Source of the DNA: Escherichia coli
GTDB lineage: Bacteria; Pseudomonadota; Gammaproteobacteria; Enterobacterales; Enterobacteriaceae
Length of the DNA stretch: 64,000 nucleotides
Reading direction: 5' to 3' (one strand)
NCBI RefSeq assembly: GCF_013315695.1
Contig: NZ_CP054353.1
The notes beneath the pieces are model-generated. The model was not told the DNA's origin. It did not search any database and saw only the letters and a program-made list of their open reading frames with translations. Below, piece after piece: positions 2,704 through 20,802 of this stretch. A program made the translations under genes and the position numbers. Each line of letters opens with the position of its first letter. Within the stretch, counting starts at the first letter, position 1.

Positions 2704-3598
2704 CCTTTCGCAGTTGCCTGCACCGCAGATTGTGGATGTGCCGGACTTTGAGACGCTGCTTGCCGAACGCAAGGCAGAATTTGTGGCGCTTCATCCGAAA
2801 GATGAACAGGAAGCAGTGATCCGCACGCTGGAACTGGAATCTGAACCCGCCACTAAATTGTTGCAGGAGAACGCTTACCGTGAGTTGCTTCTGCGCCAGC
2901 GCATTAACGAAGCCGCGCAGGCGGTGATGGTGGCTTACGCGATGGGCGGCGATCTTGACCAGCTCGCTGCCAACTACAACGTGACACGCCTGACGGTGAC
3001 GCCTGCTGATAATGATGCTGTGCCGCCCGTTGCAGCTGTGATGGAAAGCGATGAAGCGTTGCGCCTGCGTGTGCCTGCAGCCTTTGAAGGGCTTTCTGTT
3101 GCGGGGCCAACTGCAGCTTATGAATTTCATGCCCGAAGCGCCGACGGTCGGGTGGCGGATGCCAGTGCAACCAGCACGGCACCTGCAGAGGTGGTGCTGA
3201 CTGTCCTTAGCCGCGAAGGCGATGGAACTGCAGAAAAAGACCTGCTGGACGTGGTGGAAAAAGCTCTGAACAGTGAGAACGTCCGCCCGGTGGCTGACCG
3301 TCTTACGGTTCGCAGCGCAGAAATCATCCCGTATCGCGTGGAAGCCACCATTTTTCTCTATCCGGGACCGGAAGCAGAGCCGGTAATGGCAGCGGCAAAA
3401 GCCAGTCTGCAGAAGTACATTGCCAGCCAGACGCGTCTTGGTCGGGATATTCGCCGTAGCGCCATCTTTGCTGCTCTGCATGTTGAGGGTGTTCAACGTG
3501 TGGAACTGGCTTCTCCGCTGGCGGATGTGGTCCTGAACAAAACACAGGCGGCATCATGTACGCAGTGGAGCGTAACCAACGGAGGAACGGATGAATAG
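2690..3598 (+). CDS. J: Baseplate wedge protein J
   Basis: 302 aa from ATG at 2690 with AGGAG upstream (track ORF starts 2651); P2 gpJ-like. Confidence 0.75.
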   Translation: MAVIDLSQLPAPQIVDVPDFETLLAERKAEFVALHPKDEQEAVIRTLELESEPATKLLQENAYRELLLRQRINEAAQAVMVAYAMGGDLDQLAANYNVTRLTVTPADNDAVPPVAAVMESDEALRLRVPAAFEGLSVAGPTAAYEFHARSADGRVADASATSTAPAEVVLTVLSREGDGTAEKDLLDVVEKALNSENVRPVADRLTVRSAEIIPYRVEATIFLYPGPEAEPVMAAAKASLQKYIASQTRLGRDIRRSAIFAALHVEGVQRVELASPLADVVLNKTQAASCTQWSVTNGGTDE

Positions 3599-4196
3599 TC
3601 TGCTGCCACCGGGTTCAACTTCACTGGAGCGCCGACTGGCGCAAACCTGTAGCGGGATTTCTGATTTGCAGGTGCCGCTGCGTGACTTGTGGAATCCGGC
3701 TACCTGTCCGGTCAGCTTCCTGCCTTATCTCGCCTGGGCGTTCTCTGTGGATCGCTGGGACGAGGGCTGGACAGAAAGCGTCAAACGCCAGGTAGTGAAG
3801 GATGCTTTTTATATTCATCAGCATAAAGGAACCACCAGTGCCGTACGGCGAGTGGTGGAACCGTTCGGATTCCTGATCCGCATTATTGAGTGGTGGCAGA
3901 CCGGAGAAACACCGGGCACGTTTCGCCTGGATATCGGCGTGCAGGACCAGGGCATCACTGAAGATACCTATCTGGAACTTGAGCGACTGATAAGCGATGC
4001 CAAACCATGTAGCCGCCACATGATCGGCATGTCCATCAATCTGCAGACCAGCGGCCCGCATTGGGTGGGAGCCGCCAGCTATCTTGGCGAAGAAATCACG
4101 ATCTATCCGTATATCAACGAAACGATTATTTCCGGTGGCACCGCGCATGAAGGCGGGGCGGTCCATGTTATTGACACAATGAGAGTGAATCCATGA
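3591..4196 (+). CDS. I: Baseplate protein I
   Basis: 201 aa; position between J and H. Confidence 0.7.
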   Translation: MNSLLPPGSTSLERRLAQTCSGISDLQVPLRDLWNPATCPVSFLPYLAWAFSVDRWDEGWTESVKRQVVKDAFYIHQHKGTTSAVRRVVEPFGFLIRIIEWWQTGETPGTFRLDIGVQDQGITEDTYLELERLISDAKPCSRHMIGMSINLQTSGPHWVGAASYLGEEITIYPYINETIISGGTAHEGGAVHVIDTMRVNP

Positions 4197-5314
4197 GCAC
4201 AAAATTTTATACCCTGCTGACGGATATTGGCGCGGCGAAACTTGCCAGCGCCGCCGCGCTCGGTGTGCCGCTAAAAATTACCCATATGGCGGTGGGCGAT
4301 GGCGGTGGAGTATTGCCAACGCCGGACGCAAAGCAGACGGCACTGGTAAATGAGAAACGCCGGGCTGCGCTGAATATGCTTTATATCGACCCGCAGAACA
4401 GCAGCCAGATTATTGCCGAACAGGTGATCCCTGAAAACGAGGGCGGTTGGTGGATACGTGAAGTGGGCTTGTTTGATGAGTCCGGGGCATTGATTGCCGT
4501 GGGCAACTGCCCGGAAAGCTATAAGCCGCAACTGGCTGAAGGTAGCGGGCGCACTCAGACCGTGCGCATGGTGCTGATTACCAGCAGCACGGACAATATC
4601 ACCCTGAAAATCGACCCTGCTGTAGTGCTGGCAACCCGCAAGTATGTGGATGACAAGGCACTGGAGCTGAAGGTGTACGCAGATGATCAGATGGCAAAAC
4701 ATCTTGCCGCACCGGACCCGCATTCACAGTACGCGCCAAAAGCCAGCCCGACATTTACCGGAACCCCCAAAGCGCCAACGCCAGCGGCGGGGAATAATAC
4801 CACGCAGGTTGCGACCACTGCGTTTGTACAGGCGGCACTGACGGCCCTTATTAATGGTGCGCCAGCCACGCTGGACACGCTGAAAGAAATAGCCGCAGCC
4901 ATTAACAATGATCCGAATTTCAGTACCACCATTAACAATGCGCTGGCACTAAAAGCGCCACTGTCGAGTCCGGCACTCACCGGAACGCCAACAGCACCTA
5001 CTGCGGCACAGTCGGTCAACAATACACAGATTGCCACTACAGCTTTTGTGAAATCAGCGATTGCAGCAATGGTGGGTTCTGCACCCGCGGCACTGGATAC
5101 ACTGAACGAACTGGCGGCGGCACTGGGGAATGATCCGAACTTTGCCACGACAATGCTTAATGCGCTGGCAGGTAAACAACCGCTGGACAATACGCTGACT
5201 AATTTGAGTGGAAAGGATGTAGCTGGTCTTCTCGCATACCTTGGTTTGGGAGAAGGCGGCAAAACTGGGTGTGCCTGTTCCAGGGGCCTTCAGATACCGG
5301 ACAACAGGCTTTGA
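4193..5314 (+). CDS. H: Tail fibre protein H, conserved N-terminal/shaft part; ends 19 codons after the inversion crossover site
   Basis: N-terminus MSTKFYTLLTDIGAAKLA...MAVGDGGG and repeats TGTPxAPT / ALDTLNELAAALGNDPNF resemble P2 gpH; 373 aa versus about 669 aa for P2 H. Confidence 0.7.
   Translation: MSTKFYTLLTDIGAAKLASAAALGVPLKITHMAVGDGGGVLPTPDAKQTALVNEKRRAALNMLYIDPQNSSQIIAEQVIPENEGGWWIREVGLFDESGALIAVGNCPESYKPQLAEGSGRTQTVRMVLITSSTDNITLKIDPAVVLATRKYVDDKALELKVYADDQMAKHLAAPDPHSQYAPKASPTFTGTPKAPTPAAGNNTTQVATTAFVQAALTALINGAPATLDTLKEIAAAINNDPNFSTTINNALALKAPLSSPALTGTPTAPTAAQSVNNTQIATTAFVKSAIAAMVGSAPAALDTLNELAAALGNDPNFATTMLNALAGKQPLDNTLTNLSGKDVAGLLAYLGLGEGGKTGCACSRGLQIPDNRL
5229..5254. repeat. 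Left crossover site of invertible segment (hix/gix-like 26 bp)
   Basis: ttctcgcatacc-tt-ggtttgggagaa; half-sites inverted; lies inside H coding frame (LAYLGLGE). Confidence 0.6.
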
Positions 5315-5668
5315 AATGCAAGTGGTGATGGATGGATGAAATTACCCGGAACTGGAAAATCCTGCAAAATGGTCGTGGTGATTTACGCCGAGTTTATCGA
5401 CGCTGGGATGAGAATTACATTGATTAGGCATCGTGTTTTATTGAGTAAGGCCGGACTGCGGAAAAGCACCGTCATCCTGGTGATGGCGGTGCGACTTCAA
5501 AAGCGCTGGGGGAACTGGCGATGATCTTCAGAAGGCCCAACGTTAACAGGGGGCTTTATGCCGCTGCTTACAGAACGTCATCCAACCAGCGACACGGTAT
5601 CGATGAACGACAGTTGGTGGGCTGTTGGCGGGAGTAATTTTATCCAGGGTGATTTATATTGAACGAAT

Positions 5669-5914
5669 ATGTTTATAGCTGCAATGGATAACGCCGTATT
5701 TTCCCGAGGATACCACGATTGCGGGGAATATATAAATCATAGGGATGGGATTGGTGAGACGCGGGAATATATTTCTGCATCAACTCAAAATATTTGCAGT
5801 GGGAGTTTCGGTATTGAACCGCCACAAGGACGCTCCGGTACATCTAAGGCTGGAGATGATTTGCTGTTCTGCGTGGAGAAAATCATGGGAATATGTGTCA
5901 GAAGAACTTATTGA
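5669..5914 (+). pseudogene. Tail fibre assembly (tfa)-like gene fragment, apparently frameshifted
   Basis: Translation MDNAVF...DGIGETREYISAS... shares protein-level similarity with a minus-strand copy near 6480-6680; ORF breaks after 81 aa and continues in another frame. Confidence 0.3.
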
Positions 5915-6436
5915 AATTACTGAATCAGAAAACACCGGAAACCAAGATGCCAACGAAATACAGAACAGGCGACTATCCCGAAAATACAGCCGCTATCGGT
6001 CGCCATGAACGATAAATGAACTGGCGCAATATAATTGACAGATACTGGATTATCTGGACGGTGGAACTGGTTGATTCCTCCAGCACAGCGCCAGTCATTG
6101 ATTGATGGCAATGGCCTCCGGCAGTCTGGCCAGATGAAACATCCGGCGCGGGACTGTAAACTGTTGCCGTCACCGAAACAATGTAATCCAGCGCAGCGTT
6201 AAGTTGGTTGACGCTGGTGACGGCAACAGATACCGTCCGGCCGGATGTCATCAGTTGAACTGCCTGAGGCGCAGGCCATTTGCATCAATCTGGTGACTGG
6301 GAGGAATCAACCAGTTCAGTGCGTCCAGATAATCCAGCCACAAATTACCCATTTTCGCCAGTTCCCATTTATCAGACGACGTTAGCGGCTTTACCGGGTG
6401 GTTGTATTTTCATGATATTCGCCTGGCTTGATTTAA

Positions 6437-6625
6437 TTAGTAGCTCTGTCTTTCTGATTCAGTTATAGACGATTTCACTTCGATGGTGGGTGGATGATTT
6501 TTAAATCCACAGAACGGCAAATTCATAACCAGCCTTACGGATTTTGAGCGTTGTGGCAGGTTCTGGAATAAACTCACTGCAAGATATTTTTGATGCAGAA
6601 ATATATTCCCGCGTCTCACCATCAT
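6437..6625 (-). pseudogene. Second tfa-like copy in opposite orientation, frameshifted
   Basis: 30-bp perfect inverted repeat with 5753-5782; conserved peptide ...YDGETREYISAS... lies in a different frame from the track ORF here. Confidence 0.3.
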
Positions 6626-6676
6626 AGTTATAGACGGTCAATATATCCACGCCTTCGTGGTAATGCCTTGCGCTAT

Positions 6677-7129
6677 TTAAACACGGCGTCGTTCATTAAT
6701 GCAGCCCTGACGATAAGTTAAACCAACAGCCCACGGGTTGTAATTCGCCGATACCGATGTCGCTGGTGAATGACGTTCGGTGATGGGATCAGAATTAAAG
6801 CCGGTTAACCCCCTGGGCCTTCGTGCAGTCATCACGAATTGTCGCCCAGCGCCCATTCCTCTTTGAGCCATCACCCAGAATGAGTACAGGATGACGGTGC
6901 TTTTCCAGCATTTTGGGGAAAGGGATGCTAAAAACACGTCCTCATTGTTACCGCGATAATGTCGGCGTAACCGCGAATAACGACCGCATAAATCAGGTAA
7001 TTTATTTGTTGGATAATTGCCAGTTCCATCCATCAAAATGCCGCACCGTTGCAAAAGCCAGCCTGTCCGGTATCTGAAGGCCATGGAACAGTCACACCAT
7101 CCCGTTTTGCAGAGCTTCTCCCAAACCAA
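6677..7129 (-). other. 150-codon open frame reading inward from right crossover site; status uncertain
   Basis: Long stop-free frame, +1 relative to the H continuation frame; W/R/C-rich translation. Confidence 0.2.
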
Positions 7130-7141
7130 CGTTTATGAAAA
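7116..7141. repeat. Right crossover site of invertible segment
   Basis: ttctcccaaacc-aa-cgtttatgaaaa; inverted relative to left site (core TT versus AA). Confidence 0.6.
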
Positions 7142-7196
7142 TGCAGAGATAATGGCTAACTGGCATCATCCCCGGTTTTTATTCAGGGGGATGATC

Positions 7197-7763
7197 ATGC
7201 TTATTGGCTATGTACGCGTGTCAACAAATGACCAGAACACCGATTTGCAACGTAATGCACTGAACTGCGCGGGATGTGAGCGGATTTTTGAGGATAAAAT
7301 CAGTGGCACTAAGTCCGACAGACCAGGGTTGAAAAAACTGCTCAGGACACTATCGGCAGGAGACACGCTGGTTGTCTGGAAGCTGGACAGGTTGGGGCGC
7401 AGTATGCGGCATCTTGTTACGCTGATAGAAGAGTTGCGTCAGCGAGGCGTGAATTTCCGAAGCCTGACTGACAGTATTGATACCAGCACCCCAATGGGCC
7501 GTTTCTTTTTTCATGTCATGGGTGCCCTGGCTGAAATGGAACGCGAACTGATAGTTGAACGTACCAGGGCAGGGCTGGCTGCAGCTCGTGCCAAAGGCAG
7601 AGTAGGTGGACGCCGTCCTAAGTTGACCACCGAACAGTGGGCACAGATTGGGCGTTTACTCGAGGCCGGAGAATCAAGACAGCGTATTGCACTGATTTTT
7701 GATGTAGGCGTTTCTACCATTTATAGAAAATTTCCGGCAAATAAGAGCAATGAATCTCCCTGA
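7197..7763 (+). CDS. pin: Serine DNA invertase, Pin/Gin/Cin/Hin family
   Basis: MLIGYVRVSTNDQNTDLQRNAL... with catalytic Ser in VRVST and C-terminal HTH; track ORF 7017-7763 over-extends upstream. Confidence 0.9.
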   Translation: MLIGYVRVSTNDQNTDLQRNALNCAGCERIFEDKISGTKSDRPGLKKLLRTLSAGDTLVVWKLDRLGRSMRHLVTLIEELRQRGVNFRSLTDSIDTSTPMGRFFFHVMGALAEMERELIVERTRAGLAAARAKGRVGGRRPKLTTEQWAQIGRLLEAGESRQRIALIFDVGVSTIYRKFPANKSNESP

Positions 7764-7810
7764 ATCAGCATTATTTTGATTATCCCTGCAGCAGACAAAT
7801 ACCGTCATTT

Positions 7811-7828
7811 TGTGTGAATAACGGTACA
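7811..7828 (+). promoter_or_regulatory. Ogr-dependent late promoter element TGT-N12-ACA upstream of FI
   Basis: tgtgtgaataacggtaca about 75 bp upstream of FI start. Confidence 0.45.
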
Positions 7829-7904
7829 ACTGCGCTTAGCTGTTTGTCAGGCACAATCACTTCAACATAGGGCGAAGCCTAATCCAATCAGGAGGTTCGC
7901 CACT

Positions 7905-9077
7905 ATGGCTCAGGATTACCACCATGGGGTGCGCGTTGTTGAAGTCAACGAAGGCACCCGATCCATTACCACGGTGAGCACCGCCATCGTGGGTATGGTC
8001 TGCACGGGCGACGATGCCGATGCAAAAATGTTTCCTCTTAATAAACCCGTGCTGATCACTGATGTGCTGACTGCCAGCGGTAAAGCGGGTGAGTCCGGCA
8101 CGCTGGCCCGTTCGCTGGACGCCATCGCTGACCAGGCAAAACCCGTGACCGTTGTTGTGCGTGTGCCGCAGGGTGAAACGGAAGAAGAAACCACAACCAA
8201 TATCATCGGCGCAGTGACCGCCGAGGGTAAAAAAACAGGCATGAAAGCCCTGCTATCTGCCCAGTCACAGCTCGGCGTTAAACCGCGCATTCTCGGCGTG
8301 CCAGGTCACGATAACAAAGCCGTTGCTACTGAGTTGCTGAGTGTGGCGCAAAGCCTGCGTGGGTTTGCCTACCTGTCAGCATATGGCTGCAAGACGGTAC
8401 AGGAGGCGATCACTTACCGTGAAAACTTCAGCCAGCGCGAAGGGATGCTGATCTGGCCTGACTTTACTGGCTGGGACACGGTGCTGAACGCCGAAGCAAT
8501 GGCATATGCCACCGCCCGTGCGCTTGGTCTGCGTGCCAAAATTGATGAGCAGACCGGGTGGCACAAAAGCCTGTCCAACGTGGGCGTGAACGGTGTCACC
8601 GGAATTTCTGCAGATGTGTTCTGGGATCTGCAGGACCCGGCAACCGATGCAGGTCTGCTGAACCAGAACGACGTCACCACGCTTGTGCGTAAAGACGGTT
8701 TCCGCTTCTGGGGTTCCCGCTGCCTGAGTGATAACCCGCTCTTTGCCTTCGAAAACTACACCCGCACGGCGCAGGTGCTGATGGACACGATGGCAGAAGC
8801 ACACATGTGGGCGGTGGATAAACCGCTTAACCCGTCGCTGGCCCGCGACATTATCGAAGGTATCCGCGCCAAAATGCGCAACCTGGTCAGTCAGGGCTAT
8901 CTCATTGGTGGTGATTGCTGGCTGGACGAGTCGGTGAACGACAAAGACACGCTTAAAGCCGGAAAACTCACCATCGACTACGACTACACGCCAGTGCCGC
9001 CACTTGAAAATCTGATGCTGCGCCAGCGCATCACCGATCAGTACCTGGTGAATTTCGCCAGCCAGGTCAGCGCGTAA
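7905..9077 (+). CDS. FI: Contractile tail sheath protein FI
   Basis: 390 aa; AGGAGG RBS; size and position match P2 FI. Confidence 0.85.
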
Positions 9078-16346: not shown

Positions 16347-16641
16347 GTGTATTTCACCCGAGGTTGAATAAAAGCCTACTACATCGCTATTTTACCATTC
16401 AATTTTATCATTAGCAGATTCCAATGAAGAAGATACTTCTGGTTTATCTAATGAAAATTGTGAAGTAAAAGTAGGATACTTCATTCTTCTGCAGTGAGGG
16501 GGGCGTGGATAACATTATAATTTCTTGTTGTATAGCCTTTTCGGGAAAGAGCAGACAAGATTTACATAAAACTCTGTCGCCATTTTGCCGCCACTTCCAA
16601 AGAAAAAGGGGCTACGCTTTCACGTAACCCCTTGATTTATT

Positions 16642-17004
16642 TGGTGGAGCTGGCGGGAGTTGAACCCGCGTCCGAAATTCCTACATCCTCGGTACTACAT
16701 GCTTAGTCAGTCTTTACATTCGCTTGCCAGCTGCGGACGGACACGCCACTAACAAACTAGCCTGATTAAGTTTTAACGCTTCAACCCCAGGCAGGGCTTC
16801 CACGCGATCTCTTTTGGGTTTGACCTCTCTTGATCCCCGTCCTAAGAGCGGAGGCTAGGGAGAGAGGGCTCTAAGCAGGTTATTAAGCTGCTAAAGCGTA
16901 GTTTTCGTCGTTTGCGACTATTTTTTGCGGCTTTTTACGAGGCCAACCGCCCCTCGGCATGCACCTTGGGTTTCGCAAATCCCGTCGAATCCAGAATCAG
17001 CCCC
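16642..17004 (-). ncRNA. ssrA: tmRNA (SsrA)
   Basis: Reverse complement reads GGGGCTGATTCTGGATTCGACGGG...GGACGCGGGTTCAACTCCCGCCAGCTCCACCA; tag-coding region present. Confidence 0.95.
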
Positions 17005-17218
17005 AATGTGTAACGGTAAGTATACCAGATTCATGAGTGCCATGACCAGCCTCAATGGCGTTATCGTTAAAGATTTAGCACCCATGTAGCCTGATTTTTA
17101 TTCGATTAAGCAATGGGATGGCAACATTTGTGTCGGATGTGATAGCCAATAAGATGTGCATTCGCGCCGCCGGAGAGGGAGGCGCGGTGAGGAACTGGTC
17201 AATAATTGCAGTGCAGGT

Positions 17219-17701
17219 TTAACGGTGGGCGTTTTTCATGATACGCGCTTTATCCACCTGCCATTCGCGTTCTTTGATATCTGAACGTTTATCATGCTGT
17301 TTCTTACCTTTGGCGACGCCGATTTTCACTTTGCACCAGGCATTTTTCCAGTACAGGGAGAGCGCCACTACGGTATAGCCTTCTCGATTGACGCGACCGT
17401 ACAATGAGTCCAGTTCGCGCTGGTTGAGAAGTAACTTGCGGGTACGGGTAGGATCGCACACCACATGCGTGGAGGCCACGGCCATTGGCGTGATGTTAGC
17501 GCCAAACAGAAATGCCTCTCCGTCACGCAGAAGGACGTAGCTGTCGCTGATATTGGCTTTTCCTGCGCGCAGGGATTTAACTTCCCAGCCTTGCAGGGCA
17601 AGTCCCGCTTCGAACTCTTCTTCGATAAAGTATTCGTGACGGGCGCGCTTGTTAAGCGCGATGGTCGCTGAACCAGGTTTATGTGCTTTTTTCTTCGTCA
17701 T
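17219..17701 (-). CDS. smpB: SsrA-binding protein SmpB
   Basis: 160 aa, recognised as E. coli SmpB; adjacent to ssrA. Confidence 0.95.
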
Positions 17702-17832
17702 AAGCGTCGTGAATCATCGGTAATCTGAAATCGAAAACACCCCATATCAATCCTGCGGGGGACAAGGCTCTATCTTAGCATGAACCCGATGTTACCCAGC
17801 GCCGGGATAGCGTTTTTTTTACAGCAGGATAA

Positions 17833-18309
17833 ATGATATTATTTGTTGGATTTTTGTTGATGGAAATTGTTATGCCTCAGATTAGCCGGACCGCACTGGT
17901 ACCCTACAGCGCGGAGCAAATGTATCAGTTAGTGAATGACGTTCAGTCTTATCCTCAGTTTTTGCCGGGTTGTACCGGAAGTCGGATTCTGGAGTCCACT
18001 CCTGGGCAGATGACTGCGGCGGTAGATGTCTCTAAGGCTGGGATCAGCAAAACGTTTACTACCCGCAACCAGTTGACCAGTAACCAAAGTATTCTTATGA
18101 ATCTGGTGGATGGGCCGTTCAAGAAATTGATCGGTGGATGGAAGTTTACGCCGCTGAGCCAGGAGGCGTGTCGTATCGAGTTTCATCTCGACTTTGAGTT
18201 TACCAATAAGTTGATTGAACTCGCCTTTGGTCGCGTGTTTAAAGAGCTGGCGGCTAATATGGTCCAGGCTTTTACGGTTCGTGCGAAAGAGGTTTACAGT
18301 GCCAGGTAA
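17833..18309 (+). CDS. ratA: Ribosome association toxin RatA (YfjG)
   Basis: 158 aa; conserved position divergent from smpB. Confidence 0.85.
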
Positions 18310-18589
18310 AATTGCCGTTGAGGTGGCTTATGCGCTACCTGAGAAGCAGTACCTGCAGCGCGTGACGCTGCAGGAGGGTGCGACGGTTGAAGAAGCTATT
18401 CGTGCCAGTGGCTTGCTGGAATTGCGTACCGATATCGATTTAACTAAAAACAAAGTCGGCATTTACAGCCGTCCGGCCAAACTGAGCGATACCGTGCATG
18501 ATGGCGATCGGGTGGAGATTTATCGTCCTCTCATTGCCGATCCGAAAGAGCTGCGCAGGCAACGAGCAGAAAAATCAGCGAATAAATAA
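18299..18589 (+). CDS. ratB: RatB (YfjF)
   Basis: 96 aa from GTG at 18299 overlapping ratA stop (track ORF 18215 over-extends). Confidence 0.75.
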
Positions 18590-18595
18590 CAGACA

Positions 18596-18627
18596 GAAAA
18601 AAGGTGCTCATTGAGCACCTTTTTTAA
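18596..18627. terminator. Bidirectional rho-independent terminator between ratB and bamE
   Basis: aaaaaaggtgctcattgagcacctttttt: hairpin flanked by A and T runs. Confidence 0.65.
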
Positions 18628-18650
18628 CCTCTTTGAGAGCAACTTTATTA

Positions 18651-18992
18651 TTAGTTACCACTCAGCGCAGGTTTGTTATCAATGTTGGTCAACACACCGC
18701 TACTGTTAAAGGTCAGCGTCAGCGTTTGCTGCGTTACACCTTCATGACCAGGTTGCTGGCGGAAGACATAGAACCAGGTATTTGTACCAAATGGATCGGA
18801 CATCAGCGGTGTACCCAATGCGTACGCAACTTGTTGTTGCGTCATGCCAACACGTATTTTGGATACGTCGTTAGCGGTCAGATAATTCCCCTGGTTGATG
18901 TCAGGACGGTAAACCACTCGCTCCAGAGTGGAACAGCCTGCGGTCAACATCAATAGTACTGCTGCTGCAGCAGTCAGCGTTTTACAGCGCAT
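18651..18992 (-). CDS. bamE: Outer-membrane assembly lipoprotein BamE (SmpA)
   Basis: 113 aa with lipobox LTAGC. Confidence 0.9.
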
Positions 18993-19140
18993 AGTGATTT
19001 GATTCCTTTTCGGGCCCGAGCAGTACGTGGCTCATCTGTAATATGCCGATGATAATAGACCTTTCATCACTTTAAAACCTTTTGCTTTCCGGTCCTACGG
19101 CGTTTTGCTGTTTACTCTGACCGTGAAGCAGGAAAAAAGT

Positions 19141-20802
19141 TTACGCCGCAAGCAGTTCTTTCGCATTCGCCAGTGTGTTACGTGTGACTTCACTGCCACC
19201 AAGCAGGCGTGCCAGCTCTTGTAACCGCGCTTTTTTATCCAGGGATTGCATGTGCGTTTCTGTCATCGCACCATCGGTTTCTTTGCTGACAAAATAGTGT
19301 TGATGACCACATCCCGCGACTTGTGGCAGGTGGGTAACACACATCACCTGAGTTGATTCGCCAAGTTGACGCAGCAGTTTGCCGACAACTGCCGCTGTTG
19401 GGCCGCTAATCCCTACATCCACTTCATCAAAAATCAGTGCCGGGGTTTCCATTTTACGCGCCGTGATGACCTGAATTGCCAATGCGATGCGGGACAACTC
19501 ACCACCGGATGCGACTTTGGCAATAGGCTGCATTGGCTGACCTGGGTTGGTGGTTACCCGAAACTCAATACGATCAGCGCCGTCAGCGCCCAGGTGATGC
19601 TCGTCAAATTTAACATCGATCGTAAACTGCCCATGCGGCATAGAGAGTGCATGCATACTGTCGGTGATCAGCTGTGCAAGTTCTTCTGCATAGTGCTGGC
19701 GTTGCTGGTGTAACGCGCGCGCCGTTTCCAGTGCCTGCTGATGATGTTTCGTTACCGCCAGCGCGAGCGTTTCTTGTGAGTCGGCCTGATCGTCCAGTTG
19801 CTGCTGTTCTTCCAGTAGCGACTGGTAATACTGTGGCAATGCCTCAGGGCTGACGTGATGTTTACGTGCCAGCGAAATCTGTCTTGAGATGCGCTGTTCA
19901 AGTTCAAACAGTCGGTTGGGATCGAGATCCAGACGATCGCAGTAGTGGCGCAGTTCATCGCTGGCTTCAGCAATCTGGATGGTAGCTTCTTCCAGCATAT
20001 CAAGTACGCCGGACAGTTTGCTGTCCATGCCAATCAATTCGCTCACCAGTTGTTTAGCCGTGTAAAGCTGACTTTGCAGGTTTGCGTCTTCACCGTCGGC
20101 CATTACTGCCAATGCATTCTGGCTGGTAGTCAGCAATTGACCGCTGTTCGCCAGACGTTTGTACTCTTCGTCGATTTGCTCAAACTCTCCGGGCTGCGGA
20201 TTAAATTCGTTAAGTTCTTTTAATTGGTATTGCAGCAGTTCTGCACGGGCGGCGCGTTCCTGACTTAACTGTTGATGATGCGCGAGGTCACGGCAGCTTT
20301 GATGCCACAACTGATAACGTGCGGTCATTTCCTGGAGTAGAGAGGTTTCATTGGCATAGCCATCAAGCAGGAATTTTTGGTGCTCGGGTTTGGTGAGTAA
20401 CTGATGAGCGTGCTGACCATGGATCTGAATCAGCAACTGACCCAGTTCGCGCAGTTGTGAAAGAGGAACCGCTGTACCGTTGATAAAACCACGGGAGCGA
20501 CCATCGCTGCTGATTACGCGACGAAGCAAACATTCATGCCCGTCTTCAAGCTGGTTTTCTTCCAGCCAGCGCAGGGCCGCTGGCGTATCTTTCAGAGAAA
20601 AACGGGCGCACAGGTCAGCGCGAGCAGCGCCGGTACGCACCATGTCGGCTTCAGCGCGACCACCGAGACAAAGACCGAGGGCATCTATTGCAATAGATTT
20701 ACCCGCGCCGGTCTCGCCAGTTATTACGGTCATGCCGCTATGAAAATCAATCTCAAGCTCACGAACGATAGCAAAGTTGCTGATGGTCAGTTGTGCCAAC
20801 AT
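19141..20802 (-). CDS. recN: DNA repair protein RecN
   Basis: 553 aa SMC-like; Walker A GETGAGKS. Confidence 0.95.

Follow-up and report, generated by a model that had tools for sequence, protein, structure and literature searches.

The stretch between a tail-fibre gene and a serine invertase gene in this Escherichia coli DNA raises the question whether it forms a DNA inversion switch and, if so, in which orientation it stood in the sequenced culture. An earlier note had read it as an invertible tail-fibre segment and had proposed that both of its orientations may coexist in the population. Analysis of the 64-kb window, i.e., the whole stretch of DNA under study, supports the assignment to the Gin/Cin/Pin family of invertible tail-fibre segments. 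The element resides in a P2-like (Peduoviridae) prophage adjoining ssrA, and its layout is built like the G segment of Mu, with the constant part of the fibre gene, an in-frame left crossover site, two mirror-image cassettes of tip and chaperone, a right crossover site, and the invertase gene following each other in this order.

Architecture of the tail-fibre segment

The tail-fibre gene H, as recorded, is located at 4193–5314 on the plus strand and codes for 373 amino acids, with an N-terminal domain matching the Pfam family Phage_tail_fib (E 7e-65). Its constant part extends to about position 5254; the final 20 codons past the left crossover site are hybrid and end in a premature stop. The H proteins of relatives comprise 473 amino acids, and in locus L001 an open reading frame of this length runs continuously through the same site. 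Translation of H across the left site (...LLAYLGLGE...) bears out the proposal that the site lies inside the reading frame, as the crossover site of Mu lies in gene S; on the opposite strand of L001, the other tip begins with ...GLGEGSALPVG.

The interior of the segment, as recorded (5255–7115), is a hybrid of both orientations without an intact gene. Judged by position against L001 and L004, it would be expected to contain on the plus strand H tip A with a gp53-like C domain (to about 5630) and chaperone A (about 5635–6080), and on the minus strand chaperone B (about 6055–6650) and H tip B with a Collar domain (about 6650–7115). The types of tips and chaperones were read from Pfam domains in the intact cassettes of L004, where the gp53-like and Collar domains of the two tips are unrelated. 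With an in-frame left site, and with an inversion that swaps the C-terminal tip together with its chaperone, the arrangement is that of a tip-switching cassette of the Mu S/U type.

Both crossover sites show the 12-2-12 organization of hix/gix-like sites. The left site (5229–5254, plus strand) reads TTCTCGCATACC-TT-GGTTTGGGAGAA with its core at 5241–5242, and is identical in the loci L001, L003, L004, L007, L008, and L013. The right site (7116–7141, plus strand) reads TTCTCCCAAACC-AA-CGTTTATGAAAA with its core at 7128–7129; it is inverted with respect to the left site and in register with gixR of Mu upstream of gin, about 55–60 bp ahead of the invertase start. The core dinucleotides, TT on the left and AA on the right, thus face opposite ways. 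Both sites share the same 14 nt of inner half-site and core, and agree at 21 of 26 positions overall. The inverted-repeat call I3 pairs the arms 5229–5255 and 7115–7141, and a scan with the pattern TTCTCNNAAACCNNGGTTTNNGAGAA, allowing up to three mismatches, returned exactly these two sites from the 64 kb, where none was expected from 100 shuffles, and no further crossover site in the window. Pairing and scan confirm what the earlier note had described, namely two inverted 26-bp sites with opposed cores, and an inverted pair of 12-2-12 sites with matching core dinucleotides is what characterizes Gin/Cin/Pin/Hin-type systems. The inverted homology of about 75 bp which the same note placed next to each site is indeed present in the window (59 of 75 matches), but is no part of the recombination sites. 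In nine natural relatives, the same flanking 75 bp show 35–41 matches, corresponding to background; because it is absent from these relatives, the homology is to be regarded as a by-product of the hybrid interior.

The invertase gene (7197–7763, plus strand) begins 55 bp past the right site and codes for an intact serine DNA invertase of 188 amino acids, assigned to the Gin/Cin/Pin/Hin subfamily by translation, Pfam, and structure matches. Since the intact open reading frame spans 7197–7763, position 7763, given previously as the end of the element, is that of the invertase stop codon. The protein combines a Resolvase domain (E 2e-53) with HTH_7 (E 1e-15), that is, the catalytic N-terminus and the C-terminal helix-turn-helix of a small serine recombinase, and its best matches among solved structures are those of Mu Gin (3uj3/4m6f, full-length match, E 8e-93), in agreement with the prediction of a Pin/Gin/Hin-family invertase directly outside the right site. 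Sequence identities amount to 75% with Mu Gin, 79% with P1 Cin, and 99.5% with the invertase of Klebsiella phage KP12. The motifs MLIGYVRVSTNDQ and WKLDRLGRS are the same as in Gin, the catalytic serine is found near residue 9–10, the conserved Arg/Asp motifs carry no inactivating lesion, and the frame is uninterrupted over all 188 codons. Among public assemblies, 9692 blocks list an identical protein. Phage records carry genes of this kind under the name of DNA invertase. A Fis-dependent recombinational enhancer, acting in cis, is classically situated within the 5' portion of such a gene. A scan with a degenerate Fis consensus gave one match at +77, the same position as in Mu gin; by chance alone, the pattern is expected at 1.6 matches per kb, and coding constraints likewise conserve the region.

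A forward/reverse mosaic between the crossover sites

The earlier note overlooked that the 1.9-kb interior lacks an intact gene and appears to be a consensus artefact. Compared with E. coli 23CRST024, the flanks show 91–100% identity per 100 bases and are free of gaps up to the crossover sites, whereas the interior shows about 62–91% identity (approximately 75%), with 5–20 gaps per 100 columns and many indels. When compared with the segment of this relative, the interior gave 1525 matches to the forward copy and 1474 matches to the reverse complement. In a three-way alignment of 1913 positions, 765 agreed with both, 573 with the forward copy only, 504 with the reverse complement only, and 71 with neither, so that 96% of the interior bases correspond to one orientation or both of a single relative's segment. 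The fraction matching neither (3.7%) is close to the divergence of the flanks from the same reference (roughly 2%). Natural segments with the same cassettes, analyzed for comparison, had 1148–1202 forward-only, 7–28 reverse-only, and 14–46 unmatched positions.

The mosaic consists of 193 alternating runs with a median length of 6 nt, separated by 192 switches. Its first and last reverse-only bases are located at 5255 and 7107, just inside both sites. Forward and reverse bases are evenly mixed in most 200-nt bins, and the overall blend ratio is roughly 53:47. The interior thus is made up of bases explained by two states and is confined to the variable interval, with clean flanks on either side. 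Reference-free measures point in the same direction: the fraction of bases matching the segment's own reverse complement is 0.74, as compared to 0.60–0.63 in 14 other segments, and the longest stop-free stretch comprises 151 amino acids versus 174–425 in the same set. All four cassette proteins match the interior weakly, each in several frames and on both strands. The mosaic was not found in RefSeq complete E. coli genomes, where the best full-length match was 85% identical, an exact 46-mer taken from it was absent from GTDB representative genomes, and an exact look-up of the truncated 373-amino-acid H product gave no match.

Origin of the mosaic

We consider it very likely that the locus is a Gin/Cin-type switch of a P2-like prophage, the interior of which was recorded as a consensus chimera from a near 1:1 mixture of orientations. 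According to this proposal, the invertase would bind both inverted 26-bp sites and cut at 5241–5242 and 7128–7129, and rotation of the intervening DNA would place one of two receptor-binding tips in frame behind the constant part of H, the one tip having a gp53-like C domain and the other a Collar domain, and either being followed by an assembly chaperone of its own. Since inversion swaps tip and chaperone, the phage would alternate its host range. In a culture with both orientations at near 1:1, reads from either form would be placed on one draft by way of their shared flanks, and a consensus or polishing step could pick bases from either orientation every few nucleotides. With bases drawn from both orientations, the recorded stretch 5255–7115 would be a chimera which exists in no cell. 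The mosaic presumably formed when reads, probably long ones, were merged into a consensus, and the interior would be an instance of a known consensus artefact of balanced heterogeneity.

To obtain the predicted alternative junction, L001 was inverted in silico at the core dinucleotides, and complete E. coli genomes were searched with the product. The inverted junction was found intact, annotated as tail-collar fibre protein, in 430 complete genomes (up to 99.7% identity, at least 80% coverage), and the forward junction in 70. The consensus step was simulated as a column-majority call on noisy forward and reverse reads. Ten forward plus ten reverse reads yielded the same kind of mosaic with broken reading frames, and a 12:8 mixture yielded an almost pure forward sequence. 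The simulated consensus, with 319–369 switches versus 192 observed, matches the mosaic in kind but not in the distribution of its run lengths; because of this excess, and because the real algorithm was not reproduced, the naive simulation serves as a plausibility check only. The proposed heterogeneity of orientation gains support from the sequence, as the interior blends both orientations at fine grain, and from the consensus alone we infer, on indirect but strong evidence, that the segment was present both ways round in the sequenced culture, roughly at 1:1.

A 1:1 pile-up would likewise result from the collapse of two nearly identical P2-like prophage copies with opposed segments, without any flipping at one locus, and many E. 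coli genomes do contain several matching places (median 1, up to 8 per genome). Such copies, however, would have to be identical everywhere save in orientation. The sequence on either side is clean and without gaps as far as the crossover sites, the neighbouring phage genes are full length, and both components of the mosaic derive from the same cassette pair; moreover, the 64-kb window contains neither a second copy nor an extra site. We therefore regard a collapse as improbable. Still less credible is the notion that the interior is real DNA, a decayed and partly palindromised relic in which the switch has become a dead block of pseudogenes. The loss of every reading frame of more than 151 codons and the many nested inverted repeats centred near 6185 would fit such a relic, but decay would yield bases matching neither orientation, whereas 96% of the bases, in 193 runs of median 6 nt, are accounted for by either orientation of a single intact relative. 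Besides, exchange between the non-homologous tips would lack a substrate, and neither the flanks nor the invertase show damage, both being nearly identical to their counterparts in relatives. Garbling unrelated to inversion, e.g., by a poor long-read consensus or an edited sequence, is just as improbable as a relic, since the damage is limited to the interval between the crossover sites, consists of a forward/reverse blend rather than random noise, and leaves the adjacent genes intact. A different cassette allele, considered because phage records covered only 48–57% of the query, was rejected since both directions of one relative match equally and nearly every base is explained. Natural gene conversion between the mirror cassettes was rejected in view of the alternation at about 6 nt, the non-homologous tips, and the frameshifts everywhere; because the mixing crosses tips with unrelated Pfam domains, homology-driven exchange cannot account for the mosaic.

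Being a blend of two orientations, the 1.9-kb interior is unfit for annotation, translation, or phylogeny; on paper, four genes are destroyed, including the end of the tail-fibre gene. On the other hand, the chimera may serve as read-free evidence of active flipping at about 1:1 in the sequenced culture, and would answer the question of heterogeneity without PCR. Errors of this kind, with a hybrid consensus at an invertible phage segment, may recur in public "complete" genomes and be recognizable without reads, a proposition whose chances we judge to be evenly balanced. A candidate signature would be raised self-reverse-complement identity together with loss of all open reading frames, bounded by crossover sites; if valid, it would offer a marker by which to search for switches that flip at about 1:1 in culture. 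The same signature is seen in L010 (CP099752.1), one of the ten public loci with the identical invertase that were sampled. Measured against two imperfect references, its composition is unbalanced (654 A-type, 167 B-type, and 227 positions of neither type); it is a probable, albeit not proven, second case of hybrid consensus.

Comparison with known inversion systems

The underlying biology is already known, Gin/Cin-type tail-fibre switches being common in P2-like prophages of E. coli. The closest parallel in layout is the G segment of Mu with its invertase Gin, which shares the order of elements from the fibre part through the invertase, 26-bp sites of the 12-2-12 type, an invertase gene about 55–65 bp past the right site, and an invertase 75% identical in sequence with identical catalytic motifs. 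However, the segment described here comprises 1.9 kb versus 3 kb in Mu, its carrier is a P2-like prophage, its tips contain gp53-like C and Collar domains, and the site sequences differ from those of Mu at several positions. Cin of the P1 C segment belongs to the same invertase subfamily and, at 79% identity, is the closest of the classical members compared; switching of tail-fibre tips is a function shared with both the P1 C segment and the P segment of e14 with its invertase Pin. The C segment of P1 is larger and is flanked by long inverted repeats.

The fim switch, a promoter element of 314 bp, is inverted by tyrosine recombinases. In Klebsiella pneumoniae INF277, near-50:50 orientations of this switch reportedly led to errors in polishing (Wick et al. 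2023, PMC9980784). The likeness to the present locus lies in the corruption of long-read and short-read consensus by a near-50:50 mixture of orientations (PMC9980784). Unlike that element, the stretch affected here is a 1.9-kb coding segment, and four genes are therefore destroyed in the record.

Switching of tail-fibre alleles at 26-bp sites, with a Collar-domain tip, has been described for the prophages Phi1, Phi2, and Phi4 of E. coli EC958 (Forde et al. 2014, PMC4134206), and about 50% of the PacBio reads were in the other orientation at the three prophage tail-fibre segments (PMC4134206). The sites of Phi2 (..ACCTT GGTTTAGGAGAA, bounding a segment of 2067 bp) resemble those reported here (PMC4134206). 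In EC958, however, the assembler gave separate alternative contigs which were curated by the authors (PMC4134206), whereas here the two orientations appear to have been merged into one chimeric consensus.

Prophage setting, crossover sites and invertase

The region 4193-7900 belongs to a P2-like (Peduoviridae) prophage and makes up its tail-fibre end; the gene lengths match those of many E. coli relatives. The gene for phage tail protein I (3591-4196) is followed by the fibre gene H, which starts at 4193, a 1.9-kb interval, a recombinase gene (7197-7763, 188 aa), and the genes for tail sheath (7905-9077), tube and tape measure. Downstream of the switch, at a distance of about 9 kb, lies the tmRNA gene ssrA (16642-17004, minus strand; tag ANDENYALAA). 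Since it immediately precedes chromosomal recN, ffh and yfjD, with 97-99% identity to E. coli, the prophage has probably inserted itself at ssrA or beside it. Two ORF-poor stretches were observed beyond the tmRNA, at 16392-17221 and 17714-19143.

A search of the 64 kb for the hix/gix-type pattern returned only two matches (none in 100 shuffles), located exactly where the earlier note had placed two 26-bp crossover sites: TTCTCGCATACC-TT-GGTTTGGGAGAA at 5229-5254 and TTCTCCCAAACC-AA-CGTTTATGAAAA at 7116-7141. The sites share the inner half-site and core and differ in the outer half-sites (21/26 identical overall). As had been claimed, the left site lies in frame within H, which reads ...LLAYLGLGE... 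there. The recombinase, proposed to be a Pin/Gin/Hin-family serine invertase outside the right site, indeed contains Resolvase and HTH_7 domains and the serine motif MLIGYVRVSTNDQ, and shares 75% sequence identity over its full length with Gin of Mu and 79% with Cin of P1. An inactivating lesion, named beforehand as one part of a refuting observation, was looked for, and the gene is intact. Aligned with Mu, the right site falls in register with gixR, a short way upstream of the invertase gene. The two sites, the intact Gin/Cin-like invertase and the gixR register thus confirm the original observation. A scan with a degenerate Fis pattern did not demonstrate a cis enhancer.

Composition of the recorded interior

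In comparison with the closest full-length relative and best reference, locus L001 of E. coli 23CRST024, the flanks show 91-100% identity per 100 bases without gaps, whereas from 5255 to about 7115 identity falls to 62-91% and every 100 columns include 5-20 gaps. This interior, the longest ORF-poor run of the window, contains no ORF of more than 151 aa where relatives have four genes, and H ends after 373 aa as compared to 473 aa. The four cassette proteins each match it weakly (34-56% identity), in several frames and on both strands. An inverted-repeat search detected more than 12 nested repeats, almost all of them centred on position ~6185, which prompted a test of the interior against its own reverse complement.

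The interior matches the L001 segment at 1525 positions in forward orientation and at 1474 as reverse complement. In a three-way MAFFT alignment of 1913 bases, 765 matched both orientations, 573 the forward copy only, 504 the reverse complement only, and 71 (3.7%) neither. Forward-only stretches alternate with reverse-only ones, giving 193 runs (median 6 nt, longest 51 nt), and the two classes are mixed in every 200-nt bin, near evenly for the most part. Reverse-only bases begin at 5255, directly after the left site, and end at 7107, shortly before the right site. Pairwise controls among natural same-cassette segments (L001 and the relatives L003 and L004) gave 1148-1202 forward-only, 7-28 reverse-only and 14-46 unmatched bases. 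The reference-free self-reverse-complement match fraction is 0.74 in the window, compared with 0.60-0.63 in 14 other segments. The suggestion that the population is heterogeneous for orientation is supported by this forward/reverse blend. From its composition, the recorded interior is very probably a consensus chimera, unfit for use as sequence; the chimera itself testifies to active inversion, at a ratio of about 1:1. The earlier note had also described about 75 bp of imperfect inverted homology adjoining each site. Such homology is present in the window (59/75 matches) but amounts to only 35-41/75 in nine natural relatives, so that it is a product of the blending and no part of the recombination sites.

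Origin of the mosaic

Most likely, the mosaic originates from stacked reads of two orientations: reads of both, anchored in the shared flanks, would pile up on one draft, and the consensus step or polisher would then pick bases from either population. A crude simulation, in which 10 forward and 10 reverse noisy reads of the L001 segment were reduced to a column-majority consensus, produced a mosaic of this kind (430-461 forward-only and 382-482 reverse-only bases, hundreds of switches, broken ORFs), albeit with shorter runs than observed, and real polishers act differently. Ratios of 12:8 or 14:6, in contrast, yielded almost pure forward sequence, which points to a mixture near 1:1. Two papers describe the phenomenon. 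At three tail-fibre segments of E. coli EC958 prophages, which have 26-bp sites, about 50% of PacBio reads showed the alternative orientation (Forde et al., PMC4134206), and switches with orientations near 50:50 are reported to lead to errors in polishing (Wick et al. 2023, PMC9980784).

Collapse of two identical prophage copies in opposite orientations would yield the same pile-up, but is improbable, as the two would have to agree everywhere else, and the window shows no sign of a second one. A real, decayed and palindromised relic is more improbable still, because after decay a single intact relative would not account, in alternating runs of 6 nt, for 96% of the bases. Garbling unrelated to inversion deserves equally little credence, the damage being limited to the interval between the sites and having forward/reverse composition. 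Homologous exchange in vivo was rejected: the blending passes right through both alternative tips, whose domains, Gp53-like_C and Collar, are unrelated, so that exchange would lack a substrate.

Read stacking may also have affected another 'complete' E. coli genome (L010, 2282-3945; GenBank CP099752.1, GCA_025232455.1). Its invertase protein is identical, H is cut to 375 aa, no genes are called between the sites, where the longest stretch free of stops spans 81 aa, and the self-reverse-complement fraction reaches 0.72. The forward/reverse split (654/167, with 227 unmatched) is unbalanced and, the references being imperfect, less clear-cut. L010 is probably the same mixed-orientation consensus artefact, and this second assembly with the same signature suggests that the artefact recurs in databases.

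The intact switch in relatives

Where relatives are intact, the ORF of H runs without a break through the left site, codes for 473 aa with a C-terminal Gp53-like_C domain, and is followed by a 147-aa Caudo_TAP chaperone. The opposite strand codes for a 200-aa Caudo_TAP chaperone and a Collar-domain tip, the reading frame of which starts at ...GLGE, the shared motif for which the inner half-site codes. Inverting L001 in silico at the core dinucleotides gave a predicted junction which was found, with up to 99.7% identity over 300 nt, at coverage of at least 80% in 430 complete E. coli genomes, and which is annotated there as tail-collar fibre protein; the forward junction reaches at least 80% coverage in 70. 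With both junctions present in other genomes, the switch thus acts in nature at exactly these sites.

RefSeq (PGAP) splits H in L001 (1501-2922) and in the relatives L003, L004 and L005 (501-1922) into a partial pseudogene 'phage tail protein' (390 nt) and a separate 'gp53-like domain-containing protein', leaving about 620 nt unannotated although the 473-aa ORF is continuous; annotation seems to go wrong systematically where fibre genes are invertible. The opposite-strand chaperone of L001 (3250-3960, minus strand) extends to 236 aa, against 200 aa in L003 and L004, and carries a PGAP pseudogene flag, hence the best reference is not fully intact there. Locus L006 (538-3945; PCJD01000001.1), possibly a multi-site variant of the switch, has an identical invertase but carries a pair of left-type crossover sites separated by 80 bp; its segment measures 3.4 kb, and the tips are much larger, at 359 and 366 aa. 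In L014 (1846-2645; CP002970.1) the invertible segment is interrupted by an insertion sequence (HTH_Tnp_1, HTH_21 and rve products) that separates the H tip from the opposite chaperone.

Overall, the interpretation in the earlier note is supported, and the biology of the switch is already known: inversion exchanges the receptor-binding tip together with its chaperone, as is likewise the case in Mu, P1 and e14.
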